Made by a program: the position numbers and the translations under genes
The notes under the pieces: model-generated
Databases searched by the model: none
Told to the model about the DNA's origin: nothing
The model's input: only the letters and a program-made list of their open reading frames with translations
Part shown: positions 2,740 through 48,363 of the stretch, piece by piece
Layout: each line of letters begins with the position of its first letter
How positions within the stretch are numbered: the first letter of the stretch is position 1
Assembly: GCA_965197475.1 (NCBI GenBank)
Contig: CBDANF010000003.1
Coordinates: forward strand, 3,968,001 to 4,032,000
From: Candidatus Poribacteria bacterium
GTDB taxonomy: Bacteria > Poribacteria > WGA-4E > WGA-3G
DNA length: 64,000 nucleotides
Direction: 5' to 3'

Positions 2740-4196
2740 TGCAAAATATACAAGAAAATCCTTTCGCACCACGTCAGTATGGACAACTTGTTAAGGTAAC
2801 AGATCAAGTTTATCTGTTTCGTAATATCGTCAACTCCTCTATTATTATAGGGGATAACGGTGTTGCCGTAGTTGATACGCAGGTAAATCAGACGATGGGA
2901 AAACGACTCCTCAACGCAATTCGAACTATCACAGATAAACCGATATTATATGCAATTAATACACATTATCATTGGGATCATACAAATGGGAACATAATTT
3001 TTCGTCAAGAAGGGGCGACCGTTATAGCACGAGAGATGACGAAAGACTTTATGGTGAATAGGGCACCGCGTCAGGAGGCGTTTTTGCGTTCTCGCGGTTT
3101 CAGTCTTGGTGATCCTCCGTTTCTTCCACAGCAGACGTTCACCCATGAAACCGAACTTGATTTAGGCAATCAACCCTTGCACCTCATTCACTTAGGGAAA
3201 GCAGAAACTGATGACGCGAGTGCCATCAGGATTCCAGCAGAAGGGTGTATCGTTTCTGGTGACACAGTTATGACAGGAAGTTTTCCTATTTTTGGGCAAC
3301 CCGTCATGAATGAGGGGCTTATGGCAAACCACGATTGGATCAATACTATCAAAGAACTTCGCACTTATGCCCCAGAACATGTGCTACCCGGACACGGACC
3401 TTTAGCCCACGATGCTGAAATAGACCTATTGCTCAAAATTGAGTCCTATTTCCTTACAGAAGTACGGAAACGGGTTGAACAAGGCATGTCTTTGGCAGAA
3501 TTGTTAACGGACATGGAAGGCAACTTGCCGAACTGGATTCGGGATATTGCGGAAGTTTGGGGAACACCCCGTTATGCGATTCTACGTGTATATCGCGGGT
3601 TGATTGACGACCCTGAGCCGGGTTGGCAACACTTCAAACCGTCTGTTATTCCAACAGCAGGGACTAAGATTCTTAAACAACGCACACAAGAACTGAAGGA
3701 CTTTGAGGCATATCGTGAAACTGCAGAAGAAGTTGCAGAAGGCAACGACTTAGGATTAGCTATTGCTATTTTGAAATCCGCAACCGAAAAATTTTCCAAC
3801 CTACCAGAGGCATGGACAGAATATGCAGACTTACTTACACAAGCATCTCGCACCGTGTCAAGTGTGCTTGAGAAGGGGGATTTTTTCTATGAGGCAAAAA
3901 ATGCACTTAACACTGCCCTTGAAATAGACCCTGATTATGCTCCTGCACACCTTTTGCACGGAGCCAACTACATCTTCTCAGCTTTTCGGAATGGTGATGA
4001 TCCGACACCTGGTATGGGATCAATTTATAAAGCCTTAGTTAGTGGAATTCAAGGCACGCAGCTTGCACAAGCATACTTTTTCATCGGACTTGCGCATCGC
4101 ACAAATTCCAATGAAAAACTTGCACATGAAGCATTTGCACAGGCAATTGTTATTGACCCACGGTTTATGCCAGCACAAATGGCAAATATGGCATAG
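2739..4196 (+). CDS. MBL-fold metallo-hydrolase with C-terminal TPR-like repeats
   Basis: THYHWDH, SGD and PGHG motifs; TPR-like helices (ALEIDPDYAPAH, AQAYFFIGLAH); TGATG overlap with hemE stop. Confidence 0.85.
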   Translation: MQNIQENPFAPRQYGQLVKVTDQVYLFRNIVNSSIIIGDNGVAVVDTQVNQTMGKRLLNAIRTITDKPILYAINTHYHWDHTNGNIIFRQEGATVIAREMTKDFMVNRAPRQEAFLRSRGFSLGDPPFLPQQTFTHETELDLGNQPLHLIHLGKAETDDASAIRIPAEGCIVSGDTVMTGSFPIFGQPVMNEGLMANHDWINTIKELRTYAPEHVLPGHGPLAHDAEIDLLLKIESYFLTEVRKRVEQGMSLAELLTDMEGNLPNWIRDIAEVWGTPRYAILRVYRGLIDDPEPGWQHFKPSVIPTAGTKILKQRTQELKDFEAYRETAEEVAEGNDLGLAIAILKSATEKFSNLPEAWTEYADLLTQASRTVSSVLEKGDFFYEAKNALNTALEIDPDYAPAHLLHGANYIFSAFRNGDDPTPGMGSIYKALVSGIQGTQLAQAYFFIGLAHRTNSNEKLAHEAFAQAIVIDPRFMPAQMANMA

Positions 4197-4204
4197 GAGG
4201 CAAA

Positions 4205-5146
4205 ATGAAATATGATAGCGTTTTACTTGTAGCATTCGGCGGACCAACCCCCGGATGTTGTAAAAAATATGATACCGATAATTGTCCCGGTGAAGCATAC
4301 TGTTTTGTTGAAGGAATTGCCGGTGAAGATGAATCTCAAAAAGAACGTGTAAAAGACATCTCATCCCATTACATAAAATTGGGTGGATTTTCGCCATTCA
4401 ACGAATTGACTTATAAACAAGCCAAAGCATTAGAAAAGGCACTACAACACAATCTGCCATTACCTGTTTACGCAGGATTTAGGCATTGGACACCTTATTT
4501 AAAGGAAGTCATTGCTGAAATGGCAAAAAAGGGACACCGCAAAATACTCGGTATTATCATGGCACCGCACCAATCCAAAGTGAGCTGGGAATGGTACCAA
4601 CTGGCAGTTGAAAAAGGAATTGACGCAGTCGAAGGTGAGAAACCGACAATTGATTATCTTGACCCTTGGTACACGCACAACGGATATGTCGGTGCCATCG
4701 CTGAAATTATCAAAACAACGTGTGGCGATAAGTTAGAACGTGCTGAACTGGTGTTCACAGCACATGCAATTCCCCAAGTCTCAGCGGACACCTCACCTTA
4801 CTCACAACAGTTTGAAATGACCGGCGAAGCAGTTGCACAAGAGATTGGTAAAAAACGTTTCAACTTCGCATATCAGAGCGAGGTTGAAAACAGTCCAATC
4901 CCATGGACACAACCCGATATCAATGATTGGCTTAAAGCAAAGAACGCAGAAGGTGTTGACACTGTTGTTGCGTCCCCTATCGGATTCCTCTGTGACCACG
5001 TTGAGGTGCTATATGACCTTGACATAGAGGCAACGGAAACAGCGGATACTTACGGGATTGATTTTATTCGGGCAGGCACTGTCGGTGACCATCCCAAATT
5101 TATTAATATGCTTGCAGGTTTTGTCTGTGAAAAGTCTGAGAAATAG
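4205..5146 (+). CDS. hemH: Ferrochelatase (coproporphyrin/protoporphyrin)
   Basis: GGFSPFN, FTAHAIP, AYQS, WTQPD and PIGFLCDHVEVLYDLD motifs. Confidence 0.95.
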   Translation: MKYDSVLLVAFGGPTPGCCKKYDTDNCPGEAYCFVEGIAGEDESQKERVKDISSHYIKLGGFSPFNELTYKQAKALEKALQHNLPLPVYAGFRHWTPYLKEVIAEMAKKGHRKILGIIMAPHQSKVSWEWYQLAVEKGIDAVEGEKPTIDYLDPWYTHNGYVGAIAEIIKTTCGDKLERAELVFTAHAIPQVSADTSPYSQQFEMTGEAVAQEIGKKRFNFAYQSEVENSPIPWTQPDINDWLKAKNAEGVDTVVASPIGFLCDHVEVLYDLDIEATETADTYGIDFIRAGTVGDHPKFINMLAGFVCEKSEK

Positions 5147-5213
5147 GATTACGTTTTATAGTAAAGTCTATAAATTATTAATACCTTTTGGGCACGTGGC
5201 AATTTCAACGCAT

Positions 5214-5365
5214 TTTTGTGAATGTAAGAGGCGCAATGAATTGCGCGAGGACAAACGCATCAACTGAATAGAGAATGTGCAGTTGTTTTAAATTCACTAT
5301 AATTGTCCTAACCTTTTGTGAATGTAAGAGGCGCAATGAATTGCGCGAGGACAAACGCATCAACT
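5214..5365. repeat. Two exact 52-bp direct repeats (5214-5265, 5314-5365), each containing the REP-like palindrome GCGCAATGAATTGCGC
   Basis: Read directly; a related copy lies at 7987-8018. Confidence 0.9.
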
Positions 5366-5391
5366 CAGTTGGCATTCTAAGGAATACTGTG

Positions 5392-6828
5392 ATGGCACAA
5401 GAACAGAAACGTGCAATCGTTATTGGTGGTGGAATCACAGGTTTAGCTGCTGCCTATCGTCTGAAACGTGAAGCTGAAAAAAGAGGCATTCCGCTTGCGC
5501 TTACACTACTTGAAGCGAGCGATAGGATTGGTGGCGTTATTCAAACTGAACACCGAGATGGATTCGTCATTGAGCACGGTCCTGATGCATTTATCTCAAC
5601 AAAACCGTGGGCTAAAGCACTGTGCGAAGAACTCGGTATTGCCGACAAATTGATAGGCACAAATCCAAAGGTGAGGCGAAGTTTTGTCCTTCGTAACGGC
5701 AAATTAGTTCCGGTCCCCGAAGGCTTTTACATGATGGCACCGGGATCGTTCGGACCTTTCTTGAAAAGCCCTATCTTCAGTTGGCGAGGTAAATTTCGGA
5801 TAGTTTTGGATCTATTTATCTCACGCCAAAGCGATATTGATGATGAATCGGTTGCAGATTTCGTTAGACGTAGACTCGGTAACGAGGCATTTAAACGTAT
5901 GGCACAACCGATGATAGGCGGCATCTACACATCAGATGCAGAAAACCTAAGCCTGAAAGCAACGTTTCCACGATTTTTGGAAATGGAACGGGAACACGGA
6001 AGCATCATCAGGGCACTTTTAGCACAAAAACGGAAGTCTACCCAAACCAGCCGTGGGACAAGCGGACCGCGCTATAGTCTGTTTTTATCTTTTGCAACCG
6101 GGATGCAGGCGTTGGTAGACACGCTTGCTGATAATCTCTTTGGATGTATCCGTTTGCATTCTTGTGTTACTGCTATTCAGAAAAAAGAGAGTGAAATGAG
6201 TTGGCGCGTTTGCCTTAATAATGCCGAGATGTTAGAGGCGGATATGCTTTGCATCGCACTCCCTGCACCACAAACAAGCAAGGTTTTGTCAACAGTTTCA
6301 ACGCCCCTTGCCAAAAAGTTATCTGCTATTCCTTACACATCATCTGCAACGGTTAATCTGGCTTTCCGCCGTGAGGATGTCCAACACCTACTCAATGGGA
6401 TGGGGTTTGTTGTCCCCCTGACAGAGCAACTTAACCTTATTGGATGTTCGTTTAGTAGTGTTAAATTTGAAAATCGTGCTCCTGCAGATCATGTGTTGCT
6501 GCGTGCATTTGTAGGCGAAAACTCCAATAGCATTAAAGGTAACACGAAAGAAAGCACGAATCAGAAGGATATAATCTATACTGTACTTAAAGACGTAACG
6601 AAGTTGCTTGGAATTGAAGCAGAACCTATTTTTTCAATCGTTAGCCAACATTCACAGGCCATGGCACAGTATCTGGTCGGACACCAAAAACTTGTCCGTG
6701 AGATTGAAGAACTCGCAAAAGGCTTGTCCGGTCTTGCTTTAGCAGGTAATGCTTATCACGGTATCGGTATTCCAGATTGTATAAACAGTGGCGAACAAGC
6801 AGCATTAACCTTGCTTGATACGATATAG
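5392..6828 (+). CDS. hemY: Protoporphyrinogen/coproporphyrinogen oxidase (HemY type)
   Basis: IGGGITGLAAA FAD motif, EHGPDAF, AGNAYHGIGIPDCI; start set at MAQEQK because the ORF-track extension translates the repeat. Confidence 0.93.
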   Translation: MAQEQKRAIVIGGGITGLAAAYRLKREAEKRGIPLALTLLEASDRIGGVIQTEHRDGFVIEHGPDAFISTKPWAKALCEELGIADKLIGTNPKVRRSFVLRNGKLVPVPEGFYMMAPGSFGPFLKSPIFSWRGKFRIVLDLFISRQSDIDDESVADFVRRRLGNEAFKRMAQPMIGGIYTSDAENLSLKATFPRFLEMEREHGSIIRALLAQKRKSTQTSRGTSGPRYSLFLSFATGMQALVDTLADNLFGCIRLHSCVTAIQKKESEMSWRVCLNNAEMLEADMLCIALPAPQTSKVLSTVSTPLAKKLSAIPYTSSATVNLAFRREDVQHLLNGMGFVVPLTEQLNLIGCSFSSVKFENRAPADHVLLRAFVGENSNSIKGNTKESTNQKDIIYTVLKDVTKLLGIEAEPIFSIVSQHSQAMAQYLVGHQKLVREIEELAKGLSGLALAGNAYHGIGIPDCINSGEQAALTLLDTI

Positions 6829-40014: not shown

Positions 40015-40168
40015 AGTGTTATTCCTATCATTATTGTGGAGCGCGGGTACGCCTGCTGATTTAGTTTGACGTATAATCTCTTTAAGAGTACAATTTTATT
40101 ATTCTTTGATAATATGTGCAATAAAAATTTCAGACTAACACGTAATTTTGATAGCAAGAGAAGAAACA

Positions 40169-40384
40169 TTGCAAAATCTTGACCGCATAACGTTTGATCC
40201 AAATGTAATGGGTGGCAAAGCATGTATCCGAGGCATGCGGGTTACCGTCGGAACAGTTGTTGGATTGATTGCCTCTGGTTATTCCAATGCTGATATTCTG
40301 AATGCTTATCCCTATTTGGAAGAAGAAGATATCTGTCAATCTCTCTCCTATGCCGCATGGCGAGTTACGGACTCTACTCTTTAA
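40169..40384 (+). CDS. DUF433 family antitoxin-like protein (orphan)
   Basis: RITFDPNVMGGKACIRGMRVTV...AYPYLEEEDI; TTG start. Confidence 0.85.
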   Translation: MQNLDRITFDPNVMGGKACIRGMRVTVGTVVGLIASGYSNADILNAYPYLEEEDICQSLSYAAWRVTDSTL

Positions 40385-40403: not shown

Positions 40404-41876
40404 TTACATTCTGCTGTGACCTTCCTGTTTAAACCTGTCCAACAATACCGTTAATCGTTGCACAATTTCGGGACGACTTGACCACAGATTTTCAGTTTCA
40501 CCTGGGTCATCAAAAATATGATATAACTGCCCTGGAGTCCCTGGTTTAGGACCTCCATCGCGGGGTGGAGGCCATCCGCCCGATCCCTGTGTGCCTAAAA
40601 CCAATTTCCACTCGCCGTGCCGTATAGAAAAAACGCCGGTACTGGAATGATGTACAATAGCCTCTCGTAGCGGTTTTTCTGTCTCTTCACCTAACAGTGC
40701 GGACAAAATATTACAACTGTCCTGTCCAGCATCGTCGGGGACATCCGATCCTACGATCGCTGCAGATGTTGCCATCAGATCTGTTAAGCAGACCAATTCA
40801 TCCGTTGCCGTATTAGGTTGAATGACACCCGGCCAGCGCGCAATAAACGGTTCGCGATGTCCGCCTTCCCAGATGTGTGCTTTGTATCCGCGCCAGTCTC
40901 CGCAAGATTTGTGGTCATAGAGATTATATGGCATCGGACTGTTGCCACCCCGAATTCGGTCGCCAGGCAGTGCGCCGTTGTCGCTTGTAACAAAAATCAA
41001 AGTCTCGTCGGTTTTACCTGTACGATCTAACGCTTCCATTATTTCACCCACCATCCAATCTACTAACCAGACCAGATCGCCGCGCGGTCCAGCATCGCTC
41101 TGCCCGCGGGCAAATTCTGGCACAACCTCGACGACACACGGTTCATGCGGTGCCGAGGGTGTCAGATAAAGAAAGAACGGTTCATCCGAATCGGCTTGTG
41201 CGTCAATATATTCAACAGCCTTTTGTGCAATCATCGGGTCGGCATCTTTATGCTGCCAACTCGGGGCAGTCATCCCTGGTCGACCTGTAAAATCTGGCAC
41301 TCCACGGTATTCACTTGGAATTTCAACAAAAGCGTCATTTTCAATAAAACCGTAAGGGGGTTGGCACGTTGGGCAGCCTGAGGTGCCATAGAAATAGTCA
41401 AAACCGATATCAATTGGACCGCTTGTCAATGGTGCGTTGAAATTTATATGTTCCTCTAATTCTCGTTTGGCATTCCCCCAAGGCAGCGGCGCATCGAAAT
41501 CGTAATCGTATCCCGGTTTTGTCGAAAATCCGAGTCCTAAATGCCATTTACCGACACATGCGGTGTTGTAACCTGTATCTTTCAGCAAACCAGCAACTGT
41601 TAGTCTTTCTGATTCGATTAAAGGGGGTTCGTATCCGTAAAGCACACCACGTTTTAGACGACTCCGCCAGCAATATCTGCCTGTTAAGACACCATATCGC
41701 GTCGGCGTGCAAACAGCAGAAGGGGAATGTGCATCTGTGAAGCGAATTCCTTCCTGCGCAAGTTGATCCATATTAGGGGTGGGAATTTTTGAGTCCGGGT
41801 TATAGCATCCGACATCGCCATAGCCCATATCATCTGCCATAATAAATACAATATTCGGTAATTTTTGATTGTCCAT
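40404..41876 (-). CDS. Arylsulfatase
   Basis: ADDMGYGD, CTPTRYGVLTG, GKWHLG, WEGGHR. Confidence 0.93.
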   Translation of the reverse strand: MDNQKLPNIVFIMADDMGYGDVGCYNPDSKIPTPNMDQLAQEGIRFTDAHSPSAVCTPTRYGVLTGRYCWRSRLKRGVLYGYEPPLIESERLTVAGLLKDTGYNTACVGKWHLGLGFSTKPGYDYDFDAPLPWGNAKRELEEHINFNAPLTSGPIDIGFDYFYGTSGCPTCQPPYGFIENDAFVEIPSEYRGVPDFTGRPGMTAPSWQHKDADPMIAQKAVEYIDAQADSDEPFFLYLTPSAPHEPCVVEVVPEFARGQSDAGPRGDLVWLVDWMVGEIMEALDRTGKTDETLIFVTSDNGALPGDRIRGGNSPMPYNLYDHKSCGDWRGYKAHIWEGGHREPFIARWPGVIQPNTATDELVCLTDLMATSAAIVGSDVPDDAGQDSCNILSALLGEETEKPLREAIVHHSSTGVFSIRHGEWKLVLGTQGSGGWPPPRDGGPKPGTPGQLYHIFDDPGETENLWSSRPEIVQRLTVLLDRFKQEGHSRM

Positions 41877-41914
41877 ATTATACACCAAGAGAGAATAGCA
41901 GTTACAAAATCCTC

Positions 41915-43039
41915 CTATTGTAATTTCGCCTTTAATTCCGAGAGTTCTTTGTCAATTGATTCGTCTTCCGCGTAATTCGCAAATTCACGATGCAATTTGA
42001 TGTCTTTGAATTCAATATCTACTTCGGACGCTGCTTTTGCTAAAGCTGCAGCTTCAGTTACATTTTGTCCCATTTTCTTAAGAATCTCAAAAGCTTCACT
42101 ATCTTGGAACTCTGTCAACGTTTGGTGCAGATGTTCGTGTGCGTCAACGTTTCTGTGTTGTGCAATGACAACATCCCTTTCCCTCTGTGTTTCCTGAGTT
42201 TTCTGTTGCAGTGTTTCAAGGAGTGTTGTGAGATGTGCGACTGTCTGTTTCTGTTCTTCCCACTGCGTTTTATATTGAGTTGCAAGTTGTCTGTATTCAT
42301 TTCTTTGTGTGAGGTCTTCCCGCGCAAGGTCTTCACGTCCAGCCTTGAGTGAGATAATTGCGCGTTCCTCACACCGTTCGGCTTGGACAACAGCACCCTC
42401 ATGAGCGTTTTGAAACTGTTTCTCTATTCCTATAGAAGCATCAACCTTATGTTTTGCTTCTGAAAACCGATTTGTGATCTCAAGGATTACATCCTCTAAA
42501 ACCTTTTCAAGGTCCTTTTCTTCATCTTCCTTTTCAGATTCGACCTCAGATTCCGTTTCAGACACCATTTCGACGAGTATTGAATCTAATTTGATAACAA
42601 CTGTCTCGGCGAGTTTATCACCCATCCGCTGTTTTTCTTTCCCCAACGCGAATAACCAGTCAATAGGCTGAAATATCGCTGAAAAACGACGGATGAACGC
42701 ATCTTTAAAGTTCGCAGGTTTTCCATCTTTCAAACGGACTATCCGTAAAGATAAGAGTTTCTTTCCAAATCCAGCCCCATTTTTGACACCGTCCATAAAA
42801 AATATGCCAAATATCCACAAGGCAGCACTTAAAAAGACCATTGTGCTTATTGTTAAACCATCTACAAACCGATAGTGTAGACCAACAACATTGTCAAGAA
42901 AATTCGCTTCTAAAAAACCGCCAAGAAACACAATACCTTGGCAAAAACCCAAGAAACCTATATCAAGTAAAAACGCACCTAACCTCGCCCATCGAGATGC
43001 CAATTTAAACTTTTTTCCTGCGACCCTAACAATAGACAT
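41915..43039 (-). CDS. RDD domain-PspA/IM30 fusion protein (copy 2)
   Basis: LASRWARLGAFLLD, GFGKKLLSLRIV, QRMGDKLAETVV (RDD), then PspA core (AGREDLAR, IDKELSELKAKL); RBS GGAG. Confidence 0.88.
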   Translation of the reverse strand: MSIVRVAGKKFKLASRWARLGAFLLDIGFLGFCQGIVFLGGFLEANFLDNVVGLHYRFVDGLTISTMVFLSAALWIFGIFFMDGVKNGAGFGKKLLSLRIVRLKDGKPANFKDAFIRRFSAIFQPIDWLFALGKEKQRMGDKLAETVVIKLDSILVEMVSETESEVESEKEDEEKDLEKVLEDVILEITNRFSEAKHKVDASIGIEKQFQNAHEGAVVQAERCEERAIISLKAGREDLAREDLTQRNEYRQLATQYKTQWEEQKQTVAHLTTLLETLQQKTQETQRERDVVIAQHRNVDAHEHLHQTLTEFQDSEAFEILKKMGQNVTEAAALAKAASEVDIEFKDIKLHREFANYAEDESIDKELSELKAKLQ

Positions 43040-43252
43040 TATTGCAACTCCTCCCATCTTATAAGAGTTTGCTGCTTCAAAAAAGATAGTTAAAAGATTG
43101 TTGTTGGAATATCCGTTTTTGTACTGCCCCACTCAAAATTGTGTTGAGTTTAGAGCATGCTCGGATAGCCTTAAATAGGGTTCTTGATCTGAATACAAGT
43201 TTGTAGAAAACTGAAGGGAATAGACTTGATAGTTTTCAAGGGTTGTCTGCGT

Positions 43253-44316
43253 TTACTGTAATTTCGCTTTTAATTCTGCGAGATCGTTGTCAATTGATGC
43301 TTCTTCAGCATAACCAGCAAATTCTCTGTTTAACTTTGTATCTCTAAGATCGATATCTACTTCAGATGCTGCTCTTGCTAACGTGGCGGCTTCACTGGCA
43401 TTTTGTTCCATTTTATTGAGAATTTCAAACGCTGTCCCATCTTGCATTTCTGTTAATGTTTCCTGAAGATGCTGGTGTGCATCAACATTTCTGTGTTGTG
43501 CGATGACAATATCTCTTTTTCTTTCTGCTTCCTCAGTCTTCTTTTGGAGCGTTTCAAGCAGAGTCGTGAGGTCAGCTACGACCTGTTTCTGTTCATCCCA
43601 CTGTGTTTTGTAGCGGTTTGCAAGTTGCCGATATTCGTTGCGTTGTGCGATATCCTCGCGTGCCAAGTCTTCTCTCCCTGCCTGTATCGCTATAGTTGCC
43701 CGTTCCTCACACCTTTCCGCTTGCACAACGGCACCTTCATAAGCGTTCTGAAACTGCTTTTCAATTCCAATAGACGCATCAACCTTTTGTTTTGCCTCTG
43801 ACAGCCGGTTTGTCATTTCAAGGATTGCATTCTCTAAAACCTTTTCGGGGTCTTTTACTGCTTCGGCTGCGATTTCTTCAAGATAAGGTTCATATTTCAC
43901 GACAACCGTCTCCGCGAATTTATCACCCATTCGCTGCCTTTTGCCACCGAGTGCAAAGAGCAGATCAAACGGCTGGAAAAAACCTGTGACTCGACGAATG
44001 AAAGAATCCTTAAAGGAACACGGTTTGCCATCTCTCAACCGAATAACCTGTAATGATAGTACCCTTTTGCCAAATCCTTGTCCGTTTTTGAATCCATCCA
44101 TGAAAAGTAGTCCGGCACTCCATAGTACTATACTTAGCAACATCATAAACGGAAGGGTCATAACAGCATTTCGGGGCATTAATAGCAATCCCCAATAAAT
44201 GAGACTAAAATGGAAGAGCAAAAAGAGGTGACAATTAGATCAAAGAAGAGCGCGAACATCCGAGCCGCTCGGGACGCTAATTTGAATTTTTTTCCTGCAA
44301 TTTCAAATGGTTCCAT
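43253..44316 (-). CDS. RDD domain-PspA/IM30 fusion protein (copy 1), apparently frameshifted near 44220
   Basis: ATG 44316 gives MEPFEIAGKKFKLASRAARMFALFFD, homologous to the copy 2 N-terminus; one extra base in the A5 run 44220-44224 would join it to the 43253-44221 ORF. Confidence 0.82.
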
Positions 44317-44467
44317 CGTGGACAAACCCCTTTTTGTCGAGAAAACCCATCCGTTGTTGAATTATGCCAAACTGACATCATCACCACCAAGACAGGTTTT
44401 CTTCGTCTTCAACTTATAACTTAATAATAGAGTCTCCAAAGTTAAAAAGGATAGCCAAATTTGGTGG

Positions 44468-45532
44468 TTACAACGTCGGTACTGTTACTGCTACTTCGCG
44501 TCCACCAGCCTCTGAAGAATCAATGACTCCCTGAATGATCACATTCGTAAGCAACACACCATAAGGATCAATCGGGGAAGGTTTGCCTTCACGGACTGCA
44601 TCAATAAATGCGCTATCCTCTTCATGGAATACACTTACTGATTCAAACTCAGTGAACGTTTCGTCGTGTATTTTGCCATCCTTGTCGCCATAGACGCGAA
44701 CTCCATCTTGCGGACCGCGGACTTCGCCGATACCGATTCGCAACCCCGCTTTTTTACCGAGAAAAATTGTGCCGCCCAGAGAATCCATATTCATGCACCA
44801 ACACGTCTTAAAGACCATGCGTGCGCCGTTGTCAAAAACTACCCAACCCACACCGAAGTCTTCCACTTCTGTCTCTCTAAGTGCGGGATTCCATGTGTTA
44901 TGTAGGCTAAGGTAGTTAGATGTAATACCAGAGACAGCAATAGGTTTGGGATGCCCCATTAAATAGAGTGCGGTATCCAATGCGTAAACACCGATGTCTG
45001 CAGACGCACCTAAACCGGCAGTTGCTTTACGGATAAAACTTCCACCGGGATTTCCGCGCCGCCGGTCTGCCACGGTTTCAACATAGTAGATGTCGCCAAG
45101 TGTGCCCGCGTCCACAACCTCTTTCGCTTTGATGACTTGTGGCGAATAACGAAGTTTGAGACCGATCCTCAGAATCTTATCGTTTTCTACTGAAGCGCGC
45201 CACATAGCAGTTGCCGCGTCCAACGTTGCCTCCATCGGCTTTTCACAGAAAACGTGTTTGCCCGCGTTTAATGCTGCAACGGTAGGTGCAGAATGCACAC
45301 CTGTAGGGGTACACACATACACTGCCTCAATCTCGTCCATTTTGAGCATTTCGTTGTAATCCGTAAATGTGTTTTTGATTTCCCACCGTTCTTTCGCTCG
45401 TTCCAAATTTCCCGGAACCAGATCAGCAGCTGCGATAATCTCAGCACCTTTAATTTCTGCAAGCGTTCCACAATGTGCCTGCGCAATACCGCCCGCACCA
45501 ATTAAACCTAATTTGACTGTTCTCATAGTCAT
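44468..45532 (-). CDS. Gfo/Idh/MocA family oxidoreductase
   Basis: IGAGGIA, VCTPTGVH, AGKHVFCEKP. Confidence 0.92.
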   Translation of the reverse strand: MTMRTVKLGLIGAGGIAQAHCGTLAEIKGAEIIAAADLVPGNLERAKERWEIKNTFTDYNEMLKMDEIEAVYVCTPTGVHSAPTVAALNAGKHVFCEKPMEATLDAATAMWRASVENDKILRIGLKLRYSPQVIKAKEVVDAGTLGDIYYVETVADRRRGNPGGSFIRKATAGLGASADIGVYALDTALYLMGHPKPIAVSGITSNYLSLHNTWNPALRETEVEDFGVGWVVFDNGARMVFKTCWCMNMDSLGGTIFLGKKAGLRIGIGEVRGPQDGVRVYGDKDGKIHDETFTEFESVSVFHEEDSAFIDAVREGKPSPIDPYGVLLTNVIIQGVIDSSEAGGREVAVTVPTL

Positions 45533-45604
45533 CTCCTCATCACAGATTTGTTCTATAGATTTTATCTTATTTTTCCGTTAGAAGTCAAGTGAATTTCTGC
45601 TTTG

Positions 45605-46661
45605 GGGTGTGTAAAGTTTTTGGCATAAAAATGAATTGAGTGGGGTCTTGCGAAGTATTTATAAAAATGGTATCCTTACCTAATAAACTATATACTCATA
45701 TAGGAGAGGGTACCAATGTTTAGTATATCATCAGAAAGTTGTGAAGTCAATGAACATAGAGAAGAAACGACCCAGTTTGTAAGAGAAGTAGAGGATTTTG
45801 TGTCAGACCTCACTTCACAAGAGTGTGTATCATTAGAAGATACCGAAGTGCTTGTCTCAGAAAAAGTCCGTTTGTGGGAACAGAGGCTTTAGAGATGTGT
45901 GTCTCTCAAAAGGCATCTGAGAAAGTGAGTGAACCTGTTGAATGTCCACAGTGTCAACAAGCGTGTCGTCCGTTGCGTCCAAGAGTTCGGTATATGACGA
46001 CGCTATGTGGTGTTATCCGTGTAGAGCGTTGGGTGTATTGTTGTGATCGTGGACATACCTATGTGCCGTGGGAGGCCAACCAGAAGTTGAAGGGCAAATA
46101 CACGCATCGTGTGGCAGAAGCAATGTGTCGTCTGGCAGCACTTCTTGACTTTAGAGAAGCTGCTTCGGAGTTGTCTCGTCAGGGATAGAAGTCCGCCATA
46201 CGACGTTACAACAGAAAGTGGGTGAATGGTCTCAAAAGTTGAGCGTTTGTGAACAGGTGGAAACACAAAAACTTGAGGTCAATCAGCGATGGTATGTGAG
46301 TTGTGATGGCTGTCGGACGAACTCACCGGATGGTTGGAAAGAAGTAAAAGTTGGTTGTATTTACAGGGATTATCCGCAACAGGGTTCGGATGCGACACTG
46401 AGTGTGAGGATGCCAAGTATCCGTTATGTTGCAACTCGTCCTGATGCGGCGCATTTTGGTAAGGAGTTGTTGCGTTAGCAACGCACAGCGGTATCTATCA
46501 AGAAGCTATAGATACCCAAGAAGTTGTCTTTATCGGGATGGTGCTGCGTGGATTTGGAACTTATCATTGGCGGTGTTTGTTGAAGAATAATGATTTGGGA
46601 CGGATATTGGTATCCAGACACAGAAGCCGCGTAATCTTCATGCCAAAAACTTTACATACCC
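45605..46661 (+). mobile_element. Decayed, internally deleted ISKra4/ISLre2 (UPF0236)-like insertion sequence
   Basis: 22-bp TIR GGGTRTGTAAAGTTTTTGGCAT at 45605-45626 and 46640-46661; fragments CPQC, VSCDG, WKEVKVG, IG/DGAAWIWN in shifting frames. Confidence 0.82.
45716..46634 (+). pseudogene. Transposase pseudogene
   Basis: Several frameshifts and stops; jumps from WIWN straight to a C-terminal WDGYW...EAA* tail. Confidence 0.8.
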
Positions 46662-46773: not shown

Positions 46774-48363
46774 ATGAAAATAAGTCAATTGTTTATTGGA
46801 TATTTTACTTTTATTGTGCTGTTAGTGATACATCTTCTGCCGGTTTGGGGTTTTAAGTATTTTCCAACTCAGGATGGGGCAAGCCATATCTACAACGCGT
46901 ATGTCCTGAAGGAGTACCACAAGCACGAAAACTATAGATTGCGCGAAGTCTACGAACTGAACCCTACCCTCTTCCCTAACTGGATGTCCCACGCGCTTAT
47001 GGTCGTACTGATGTACGTCTTCCCGCCGATTGTTTGTGAAAAGATTGTGCTTACGTTCTGCATCGGTCTTTTACCGTTGTCTCTCTTCTATTTCCTGAAC
47101 GGTGTACAGAAGAAAAACATAGTTTTCGGGTTGGTTGGGTTTATCTATGCCTACAACTACCTGCTTCACATGGGATTCTACAACTTTGTTCTCAGTATGT
47201 CCCTGTTTTTCTTCACGATGGGTTATTGGTGGCGAGTCAGGGATAAATTGCGTTGGACAAACATTGCGGTCATATACATATTGCTGTTGGCGACTTACTT
47301 CACCCACTACCACTCCTATGCGTTGCTCATCATATCACTGACATTCTTTGTGCTTTTCTCATCGGTTTACGATGTCTTACGCGAGGTATGGGGCTATAAG
47401 AAAACAACACATCCACCGATGCATCGCTTTAAGGATGGGATGATAAAACTCAAACCTACACTGATTTTCATCGTTGTGCTAATCCCTGCTTACTATATCA
47501 TGCTATCCTACTACCTCTACCTTGTTAACACGCACGGGCATGGTGGGGACCATAGAGGGTTTGAATGGCTTATAAACTACTTCTTCTCTATGAAATCTCT
47601 GGTCGCGTTTCGGGACGATCATGTGCTCATCGGACGGATGTTGTTGGCACTTTTTGGGATCGCCTTTGTTCTCACAGTTATCAGCAGAGTCCGGGGCTAT
47701 CAAAAGGAATTGGACACATCCGACGAACGACTCTGGACGCGCATTGTAACCCAAACAGACGGATTTCTGGCCTTGGCAATCCTCGTCACAGCGATGTATT
47801 TCATATCGCCTTGGTCGGGCTTCAGCGGGGGTTGGATAAACGACCGTTTTCACCTATACATATTCCTGATATTGCTTCCGTTCTTCGCTATCAACCTCCA
47901 TCGGCACATCAATTACGGAATGGCGGGTGTTATCATCGTGCTATCCTTATGGCATCTCAGTTACAATGTGCACACTTACACGATGCTGAATCAGGATATC
48001 GCTAACGCGCTGTCATTGGAAGGAATGGATGAGAAACACACAATTCTCACGAGTGAACCGGGTGAATGGGGTGGTTTATCTGATTCACTCGGTTTTGAAC
48101 CGAAGTATGTTGAACCTTTTGGACACATTGAATGCTTGCTTGCTGTGAAAAAGGGGATTGCCTATCTCGACAACTATGAGGCCAATACAGATCATTTTCC
48201 GTTGCGGTATAAGCGAAAGGATTTGCCTGCTGACTTCGTTATCGTATGGCAAACAGAGTACGATGATGTCGCTGGTTTGGAGCAAGAGTACGACCTCATT
48301 GATTCCAACGACTACAATCGTCTCTATCGCCGCAAGCGCACCTTACCGGATACGCAACTGTGA
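46774..48363 (+). CDS. Polytopic membrane protein, possibly GT-C glycosyltransferase-like
   Basis: About 12 TM segments; PTQDGASHIYNA after TM1; MGFYNF; NDRF; NYEA. Confidence 0.65.
   Translation: MKISQLFIGYFTFIVLLVIHLLPVWGFKYFPTQDGASHIYNAYVLKEYHKHENYRLREVYELNPTLFPNWMSHALMVVLMYVFPPIVCEKIVLTFCIGLLPLSLFYFLNGVQKKNIVFGLVGFIYAYNYLLHMGFYNFVLSMSLFFFTMGYWWRVRDKLRWTNIAVIYILLLATYFTHYHSYALLIISLTFFVLFSSVYDVLREVWGYKKTTHPPMHRFKDGMIKLKPTLIFIVVLIPAYYIMLSYYLYLVNTHGHGGDHRGFEWLINYFFSMKSLVAFRDDHVLIGRMLLALFGIAFVLTVISRVRGYQKELDTSDERLWTRIVTQTDGFLALAILVTAMYFISPWSGFSGGWINDRFHLYIFLILLPFFAINLHRHINYGMAGVIIVLSLWHLSYNVHTYTMLNQDIANALSLEGMDEKHTILTSEPGEWGGLSDSLGFEPKYVEPFGHIECLLAVKKGIAYLDNYEANTDHFPLRYKRKDLPADFVIVWQTEYDDVAGLEQEYDLIDSNDYNRLYRRKRTLPDTQL

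Follow-up and report, generated by a model that had tools for sequence, protein, structure and literature searches.

We describe here a pair of tandem genes in a 64,000-nucleotide (nt) stretch of a sponge-associated Candidatus Poribacteria genome (the window: assembly GCA_965197475.1, contig CBDANF010000003.1, forward-strand positions 3,968,001 to 4,032,000, or G000:C3:3968001-4032000) whose products appear to be a form of the bacterial ESCRT-III protein PspA that is integral to the membrane. The two paralogues lie on the minus strand and are 67% identical over 313 amino acids (aa). In both, an N-terminal RDD domain joins the PspA core exactly where canonical PspA and Vipp1 carry the amphipathic, membrane-binding helix alpha0. 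We consider it probable that their products form a self-anchored PspA-type ESCRT-III polymer at the inner membrane, in place of the peripheral form, in one family of the Poribacteria, which are uncultured.

The downstream gene (copy 2; 41915..43039, minus strand) is an intact fusion gene, with an ATG at 43039, a stop at 41915 and an open frame between them; it encodes 374 aa plus stop and is 100% identical to the protein P0001. The upstream gene (copy 1; 43253..44316, minus strand, 1064 nt) is frameshifted in this genome, and orthologues, DNA alignment and reads give its intact allele a length of 353 aa. Matches to the Pfam families RDD (PF06271) and PspA_IM30 (PF04012) exceed the gathering cut-offs (24.1 and 33.9 bits, respectively) in both copies: copy 2 scores 49.2 and 76.5 bits and copy 1 34.0 bits (a partial match, profile positions 22-136) and 91.2 bits. 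A preliminary description of this DNA, made from the letters alone, had recognized two adjacent RDD-PspA paralogues. Both domains and their positions stand; however, copy 1 is not one open frame, and its frameshift had been missed.

Copy 2 can be divided into three modules, all on the minus strand. The RDD module (residues 1-150; 42590..43039) was delimited by the Pfam match, an AlphaFold2 (AF2) model and two hydropathy segments (23-44 and 62-86); it would comprise an N-terminal beta-hairpin, two transmembrane (TM) helices and a small cytoplasmic alpha/beta part that ends in GDKLAETVVIK. An acidic linker follows at the place of alpha0 (residues 151-172; 42524..42589), and the PspA/ESCRT-III core occupies residues 173-374 (41918..42523), with alpha1-alpha5 starting from KDLEKVL. 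The core of copy 1 runs from KDPEKVL to the C-terminus (43256..43855, minus strand) and shares 40-44% identity with canonical PspA from the phylum's other families. As the preliminary description had it, the junction falls at a motif of the (K/A)(E)DPEK type, which reads AVKDPEKVLENAILEM in copy 1 and KDLEKVLEDVILE at the same place in copy 2.

The C-terminal half is, according to both alignments and models, a complete alpha1-alpha5 core of the PspA/Vipp1 type. Residues 173-373 of P0001 align to residues 20-216 of Synechocystis Vipp1 (E 8.8e-13, phmmer against solved structures). As this alignment ends at position 373 of 374 in the query and 216 of 266 in Vipp1, the fusion has no C-terminal extension (alpha6). 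In the AF2 model of copy 2 (22-sequence alignment, mean predicted local distance difference test score, pLDDT, of 71.5; predicted template modelling score, pTM, of 0.37), the core is folded into helices 165-232, 236-294, 298-312, 315-339 and 345-373. The 15 best Foldseek matches of this model in the PDB were all Vipp1 or PspA structures (best 9eom, E 1.1e-05), and the E. coli PspA hairpin 4whe superimposed with a root-mean-square deviation of 2.4 over 118 columns. The full PspA core proposed beforehand is thus borne out by the PF04012 match and by a predicted ESCRT-III hairpin fold. Neither copy matched Snf7 (PF03357) in Pfam at E <= 0.01. Copy 2 also stayed below the cut-offs of the NCBIfam equivalogs for PspA (TIGR02977, 49.4 bits against 242.95) and LiaH (NF045984, 45.6 bits against 380), and both models matched the fusion only from model position 21-27 onwards.

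Several observations show that alpha0 is absent and that an acidic, non-amphipathic linker stands in its place. The PspA_IM30 match starts at position 15 (copy 2) or 18 (copy 1) of the 220 profile positions; because the match begins there, and at residue 20 of Vipp1, alpha0 has no counterpart in the fusions. Canonical PspAs from other families of the phylum start with MGIFDRVSRVFKSNVNAALDKAEDPEK or similar, and the 18 residues before their motif have a hydrophobic moment (muH) of 0.41-0.70 and a net charge of 0 to +3. The same 18 residues in 68 fusion proteins have a median muH of 0.17 and a median net charge of -4 (copy 2, 0.15 and -9; copy 1, 0.29 and -3). Measured from the TVVV motif to the start of the core, the linker has a median length of 16 residues (range 9-156, 63 sequences), those of the copy 1 type being short (~13 residues). 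In the copy 2 model, residues 153-171 form a low-confidence stretch with pLDDT <50. According to a reference annotated in a 2025 review of bacterial ESCRT-III proteins (PMC7619361), it is precisely this helix, H0, that anchors the protein in the membrane and is needed for tubulation. The absence of helix 0, also claimed in the preliminary description, is therefore confirmed by profile start, Vipp1 alignment, low muH and linker charge.

The N-terminal half is predicted to be a membrane hairpin. In the copy 2 model it consists of a beta-hairpin (3-13), two long helices (16-51 and 56-81) and a small alpha/beta region extending to residue 150. The same elements were obtained when the RDD part was modelled alone (27 sequences, pLDDT 83.5, pTM 0.67). 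Searched against 48,161 PDB representatives, the RDD-only model gave a best Z of 8.9 (7t92_A), which is within the chance range for helical models, so that no related solved structure was identified. Exactly two hydrophobic segments precede the GDK motif in 71 of 98 family sequences, and in those 71 the median K+R count falls from 5 in the N-tail (19 residues) to 1 in the TM1-TM2 loop and rises to 12 between TM2 and the GDK motif (56 residues). Because of this distribution, and following the positive-inside rule, the hairpin is predicted to be N-in/C-in and the PspA core to be cytoplasmic. R20, D27, D84 and D128 are invariant in 27 sequences and D142 is nearly so (numbering of alignment A5, which is that of P0001 plus one); in our reading, some of the Asp residues correspond to those that gave the RDD family its name. 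These hallmark residues and the juxtamembrane motifs, invariant or nearly so, are the best-conserved part of the N-terminal half. An eLife article of 2025 describes a conserved intramembrane binding site that faces the cytoplasm, and the role of the RDD domain as not known. Given the conserved residues, and chains with several RDD modules (see below), our data suggest that the domain is more than a mere stake.

In the window genome, the RDD domain of copy 1 is split. Copy 1 measures 1064 nt from ATG (44316) to stop (43253), a length not divisible by three. The ATG frame, beginning MEPFEIAGKKFKLASRAAR, ends at a TAA after 45 residues (MEPFEIAGKKFKLASRAARMFALFFDLIVTSFCSSILVSFIGDCY) and contains the first TM helix (44179..44316, minus strand). 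The remainder is read in another frame from the ATG at 44179 (43253..44179, minus strand; 308 aa plus stop, P0085), which comprises the second TM helix, the rest of the RDD domain, a short linker and the PspA core. The frameshift is caused by a 2-nt insertion in a GGGG run (44190..44193, minus strand): in a DNA alignment, four orthologues (L005, L009, L013 and L060) have GG at this place, and copy 1 orthologues of 354-356 aa are intact. Over 44088-44480, Logan contigs from sequencing runs X1 and X3 are identical to the window; the two runs come from one sample, possibly the source of the assembly, in which case the agreement is not independent. In a contig of run X2, from a different sample, 2 nt fewer at 44190 restore the 353-aa frame, with five other differences in 735 nt. 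Because the X1 and X3 contigs carry the insertion and the X2 contig lacks it, the insertion is reproducible in reads and polymorphic between near-identical strains. A long-read homopolymer error was considered and rejected, since contigs of two runs from one sample reproduce the insertion exactly.

The two frames overlap in TAATG, where the TAA of the first (45 aa) runs into the ATG of the second (308 aa), so the two pieces could be made by coupled translation. The charge distribution suggests that the second TM helix would still anchor the 308-aa product and leave its PspA part cytoplasmic. In a sponge metatranscriptome (run X5), two small contigs match copy 1 exactly (43709-43924 and 43989-44183), in a library that may contain DNA. 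Copies split into two adjacent frames also occur in four of 56 related loci (L008, L014, L026 and L056).

A word-indexed protein search returned 580 relatives, and the best 120 of these, on which our statements rest, are all fusion-family proteins (two of them N-truncated, with PF04012 alone); the named ones all come from Poribacteria. Protein identity among orthologues is 70-80%. When 50%-identity representatives were searched exhaustively, 25 were found at E <= 1e-30, and beneath them came ordinary PspAs, ~30% identical and aligned from residue 20-23. The ESM Atlas holds one cluster of 115 members, 100% of which have both families and whose commonest phylum is Poribacteria. Among the matches listed for species-representative genomes, full-length ones occur only in Poribacteria or unnamed metagenome-assembled genomes, the other phyla giving half-protein matches only. 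Within the phylum, 155 of 176 genomes have matches at E <= 1e-30, and the window's own family has full fusion frames in 104 of 111 genomes, of which many are single-contig assemblies.

In the genomes sampled elsewhere in the phylum, the two domains are encoded separately. Five genomes sampled from four other families yielded 15 matches: 12 to PspA only, 3 to RDD only and none covering both. The 12 PspA-only matches span model positions 163-366 in frames of 221-276 aa, and those translated begin with an alpha0 of the MGIFDR...AEDPEK type; the separate RDD matches occur in two of the five genomes. Judging from E-values (1e-32 to 1e-53 in genomes of other families, mostly 1e-130 to 1e-179 within the family), the remaining non-family genomes probably resemble the five sampled in having separate domains. 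The window genome itself has one further stand-alone RDD gene.

We also looked for canonical PspA inside the family. As query we used an alpha0-bearing canonical PspA from another family of the phylum (locus L080); among the 40 genomes searched in the window's genus, 36 had matches, 93 in total. Of these, 61 were strong (E <= 2.5e-30, 36-45% identity); since every one of them starts at query residue 11-22, within a frame of 260-411 aa, we take them to be the fusions. A divergent PspA-like gene accounts for the remaining 32, which are 22-30% identical and have frames of 223-277 aa. Five complete genomes from two other genera of the family showed the same pattern, and none of the 45 fusion-family genomes searched had a close canonical PspA. 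Copy 1 is nearer to canonical PspA (40-44% identity) than copy 2 (36-39%). When the canonical PspA loci of other families were compared with the fusion array over 1.5-kb flanks, they shared one distant Gfo-family open reading frame (ORF; 30% identity) and nothing else. Taken together, the genome counts and the searches with canonical PspA indicate that the fusion is fixed in one Poribacteria family and has replaced canonical PspA there.

The divergent gene is represented in the window genome as a third PspA-like gene, ~29 kb past the window end (G000:C3:4061183-4061812, corresponding to L003:1483-2151). It encodes 222 aa with a PF04012 match of 56 bits and a polar, alpha0-like start, and most genomes of the genus contain relatives at 22-30% identity. 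A 252-aa ORF, in which motifs resembling Walker A and an ABC signature were noticed by eye, starts within the end of this gene, with an overlap of 4 nt.

The genes commonly form arrays. In the 56 related loci, family genes are always on the same strand: there is one copy in 17, two in 27, three in 10 and four in one, and the remaining locus has a fragment only, at a contig end. Thus, 38 of the 56 loci contain two to four copies. A tree of 99 sequences, built quickly by maximum likelihood, groups copy 2 with other downstream-most copies, 25 in all (Shimodaira-Hasegawa-like approximate likelihood ratio test, SH-aLRT, 100), and puts copy 1 in a clade of nine, eight of which are second-position copies (SH-aLRT 95). 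Because these paralogue clades hold across species, the duplication is older than the species, with both copies kept since. A complex prediction for the PspA cores of copies 1 and 2 (score 0.01, mark 0.32) counts neither for nor against co-assembly. In eight loci, a small conserved ORF (~100-125 aa, no Pfam match) stands before the last array copy (e.g., L051:7599-7904); it is absent from the window.

Several members have a multiplied architecture. P0122 and P0124 are RDD-RDD-PspA chains, and P0127 is a doubled RDD-PspA-RDD-PspA chain. A protein of 879 aa, in which four RDD repeats precede one PspA core, is encoded by the first gene of a four-gene RDD-PspA array in genome G155 (L093, G155:C1:39500-46500; ORF 4028-6667, minus strand). 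The protein collection contains four long cluster representatives in all, two of them of 878-879 aa. The repetition of RDD modules within one chain suggests that RDD units may normally pack side by side. PspA cores were also seen behind other N-terminal partners (P0246, P0262, P0154, P0206 and P0157), namely adenylate kinase, CesT_Tir, a HigB-like toxin and alpha-2-macroglobulin; some of these are perhaps artefacts of gene calling or assembly.

In the window, the array lies between metabolic genes on the same strand: a Gfo/Idh/MocA oxidoreductase gene (44468..45532, minus strand) whose stop is 151 nt before copy 1, and a sulfatase gene (40404..41888, minus strand) whose start is 26 nt after copy 2, both identified by Pfam. 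The setting recurs in the related loci: a Gfo/Idh/MocA gene is found upstream in 52 of 56 (median distance 199 nt), sulfatase genes in 55 of 56, mostly downstream, and a PhyH gene downstream in 46 of 56. Inspection by eye revealed two more upstream clusters, zinc alcohol dehydrogenase-like and ThuA-like. No psp or lia partner is encoded next to the array, here or in the related loci (Pfam of the neighbours: Gfo/Idh/MocA, sulfatase and PhyH), and the PspC domain (PF04024) has no match in the 92.7%-complete genome; PspB, PspF and the Lia families were not searched genome-wide. This agrees with the preliminary description, which had reported no adjacent psp partner. A scan of 41500-45800 predicted 9 promoters (shuffle mean 7.4) and 5 terminators (shuffle mean 4.0), and oxidoreductase gene, array and sulfatase gene may possibly be co-transcribed.

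Other features were noted around these genes. A 78-aa DUF433 ORF (40148-40384, plus strand) lies between the sulfatase and PhyH genes, and an ORF of ~125-170 aa is found at a similar place downstream of the array in 15 related loci. On the other side, two adjoining ORFs (45823-46188 and 46218-46478, plus strand), the first Cys-rich and neither with a Pfam match, look like one split gene. They sit between the oxidoreductase gene and the gene for a 529-aa multi-TM protein (46774-48363) which has no Pfam match either.

We propose that the RDD domain forms an N-in/C-in two-TM hairpin with a small conserved cytoplasmic part, followed by an acidic linker of 9-30 residues and the complete alpha1-alpha5 core. 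Because the RDD join sits at the place of alpha0, the end of the core that is usually in contact with lipid would be the one fixed to the inner membrane, and each subunit would stay attached to the cytoplasmic face of that membrane permanently. The likeliest function is that of PspA itself, polymerising on the membrane to stabilise or remodel it, and the built-in anchor, possibly also a bilayer sensor, would substitute for recruitment via alpha0 or partner proteins. Separate PspA and RDD genes were probably joined within one Poribacteria family, where the fusion displaced canonical PspA and was then duplicated into tandem paralogues that probably work together. In the window genome, the upstream paralogue would now exist as a 45-aa first-helix peptide and a 308-aa single-anchor PspA. 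Polymerisation, membrane repair, co-assembly of the paralogues and a sensor role for RDD are all properties that we infer. The preliminary description had likewise proposed a self-anchored remodelling or repair system in which RDD is anchor or sensor and two subunits may copolymerise; its structural premises hold, and the replacement of canonical PspA by the fusion strengthens it.

Several points weigh against this proposal. The case for polymerisation and membrane activity is deduced from sequences and models, and the full-length copy 2 model is of moderate confidence only (pTM 0.37). By our own reasoning, closed rings and rods such as those known for PspA and Vipp1 could be harder to form if every subunit is tethered. 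Copy 1 is disrupted here, so that either a full upstream paralogue is dispensable or the split form still works. Moreover, the fusion is missing altogether from four to five genomes of the genus, and the genome contains the third, soluble PspA-like gene, so that the fusions need not carry all PspA function. The conserved flanks, finally, are catabolic genes and lend no functional support.

The same evidence can be read in other ways. RDD could be the working part, an ion- or ligand-binding module such as a cation/proton antiporter or a regulator of a membrane enzyme, to which the PspA-like coiled coil would be attached as a cytoplasmic regulator or scaffold forming no ESCRT-III-type polymer. 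The concentration of conservation in the RDD hallmark residues and juxtamembrane motifs, together with the chains of two to four RDD repeats, would be readily explained in this way, and there are precedents: Na+(Li+,K+)/H+ antiport has been reported for one RDD protein (PMC5996927), and the B. subtilis RDD protein SppI is reported to inhibit the SppA protease (PMC7568657). However, none of alpha1 to alpha5 is missing from the PspA core, which is strongly conserved in ~100 species; it also descends from, and replaces, the canonical PspA of the lineage, which fits a retained PspA function better than a regulatory tail. We therefore regard a primary role of RDD as unlikely. Even less probable, in our opinion, is that the anchor stores an inactive PspA until stress leads to cleavage of the linker, releasing a soluble core. 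In its favour, the linker is predicted to be disordered (pLDDT <50) and varies in length (9-156 residues), and known systems do hold PspA or LiaH at membrane partners; but the array is linked to neither a protease gene nor a protease site, linkers of the copy 1 type are short (~13 residues), and the freed core would lack alpha0, the helix cited as the membrane anchor needed for tubulation (PMC7619361).

It is hardly credible that the pair is decaying, functionless DNA or that the fusion is an artefact of annotation or assembly. The frameshift in copy 1 and the split copies in four of 56 loci would point that way, but continuous fusion frames exist in 104 of 111 family genomes, many of them assembled as single contigs, orthologues retain 70-80% protein identity, and a near-identical strain has an intact copy 1 allele. 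The self-anchored polymer proposed above is the explanation that we favour. A bolder version of it is doubtful, in which the fusion is a Psp system in one polypeptide: RDD would sense the cytoplasmic leaflet through its conserved intramembrane site and gate polymerisation of the core in cis, and the paralogues and the chains with two to four RDDs would form an obligate mixed polymer, its RDD hairpins in a membrane-embedded array. If true, this would be a bacterial counterpart of subunit-specialised ESCRT-III, made of integral membrane subunits.

The architecture appears to have gone undescribed as far as we searched, although the sequences are already public and NCBI labels some members "PspA/IM30 family protein". 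The main text of a comparative study of the PSP system (PMC11237479) states that >98% of PspA homologues are single-domain, names NlpC/P60 and PspAA among the fusions, and mentions neither RDD nor Poribacteria; its supplements were outside the search. The words "transmembrane", "fused" and "RDD" were not found in the 2025 review (PMC7619361). Literature searches for PspA with RDD, "RDD family" with ESCRT-III and Poribacteria with "phage shock" gave nothing relevant. An mSphere paper (PMC7568657) describes the RDD protein SppI and cites the antiporter activity of the Halobacillus RDD protein. A preprint on LemA was considered as a precedent and rejected, as it concerns a different family. Whether the fusion had already been characterised was left to be checked by the preliminary description; the literature searched contains no account of it.

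In current models of PspA and Vipp1, alpha0 is both the membrane anchor and the driver of tubulation, and here a whole family appears to have exchanged it for an integral two-helix domain. The family would thereby provide a natural experiment: can an ESCRT-III-type core work with every subunit covalently fixed in the bilayer, which polymer geometries do fixed subunits permit, and are recruitment and sensing built into the subunit itself? These questions are relevant to PspA/Vipp1 mechanics and to research on the RDD domain, a widespread and poorly understood module that gains a concrete, testable partner. The proteins are small (~350-375 aa) and their heterologous expression is feasible, which opens them to experiment even though Poribacteria are uncultured.

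The closest relatives of the fusions are PspA, Vipp1 (IM30) and LiaH. The complete alpha1-alpha5 core and the (A/K)EDPEK motif that opens alpha1 are common to all of them, with Pfam, sequence and predicted fold in agreement, and the fusions appear to derive from the canonical PspA of their own phylum (36-45% identity). They differ in that an RDD two-TM domain and an acidic linker replace alpha0, and they lack the C-terminal extension of Vipp1. They also fall far below the NCBIfam cut-offs for the PspA and LiaH equivalogs and, unlike the classical Psp system, have no PspB, PspC, PspF or Lia partner adjacent. PspBC and LiaI are the membrane partners of PspA and LiaH, respectively. In those systems, as in the fusions, a PspA-type effector owes its membrane location to an integral membrane component; in the fusions, however, a single chain is both anchor and effector, and RDD has no relationship to PspB, PspC or LiaI. 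An independent membrane-anchored PspA is found in the metagenomic protein P0196 (274 aa), where a PspC domain (residues 3-59) precedes a PspA core that starts at profile position 20 and has no alpha0. Yet P0196 is a singleton, both domains occurring in one of 42 relatives, whereas the Poribacteria fusion is a conserved family of many species.

On the RDD side, the fusions share two TM helices and the conserved R, D and D with SppI/YteJ, the Halobacillus andaensis RDD protein and VanZ-RDD. SppI and VanZ-RDD also have their RDD domain joined to a functional part that faces the cytoplasm, but in the fusions this partner is a PspA core. The likeness to eukaryotic and archaeal ESCRT-III (Snf7/CHMP, CdvB) is a weak one of predicted fold in the hairpin (CHMP1B, E 0.07; Asgard ESCRT-IIIB, E 0.1; Snf7, also at E 0.07 or weaker), far below that to PspA and Vipp1. 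The subunits of eukaryotic ESCRT-III are specialised, and with that system the Poribacteria arrays share the presence of several paralogues side by side.

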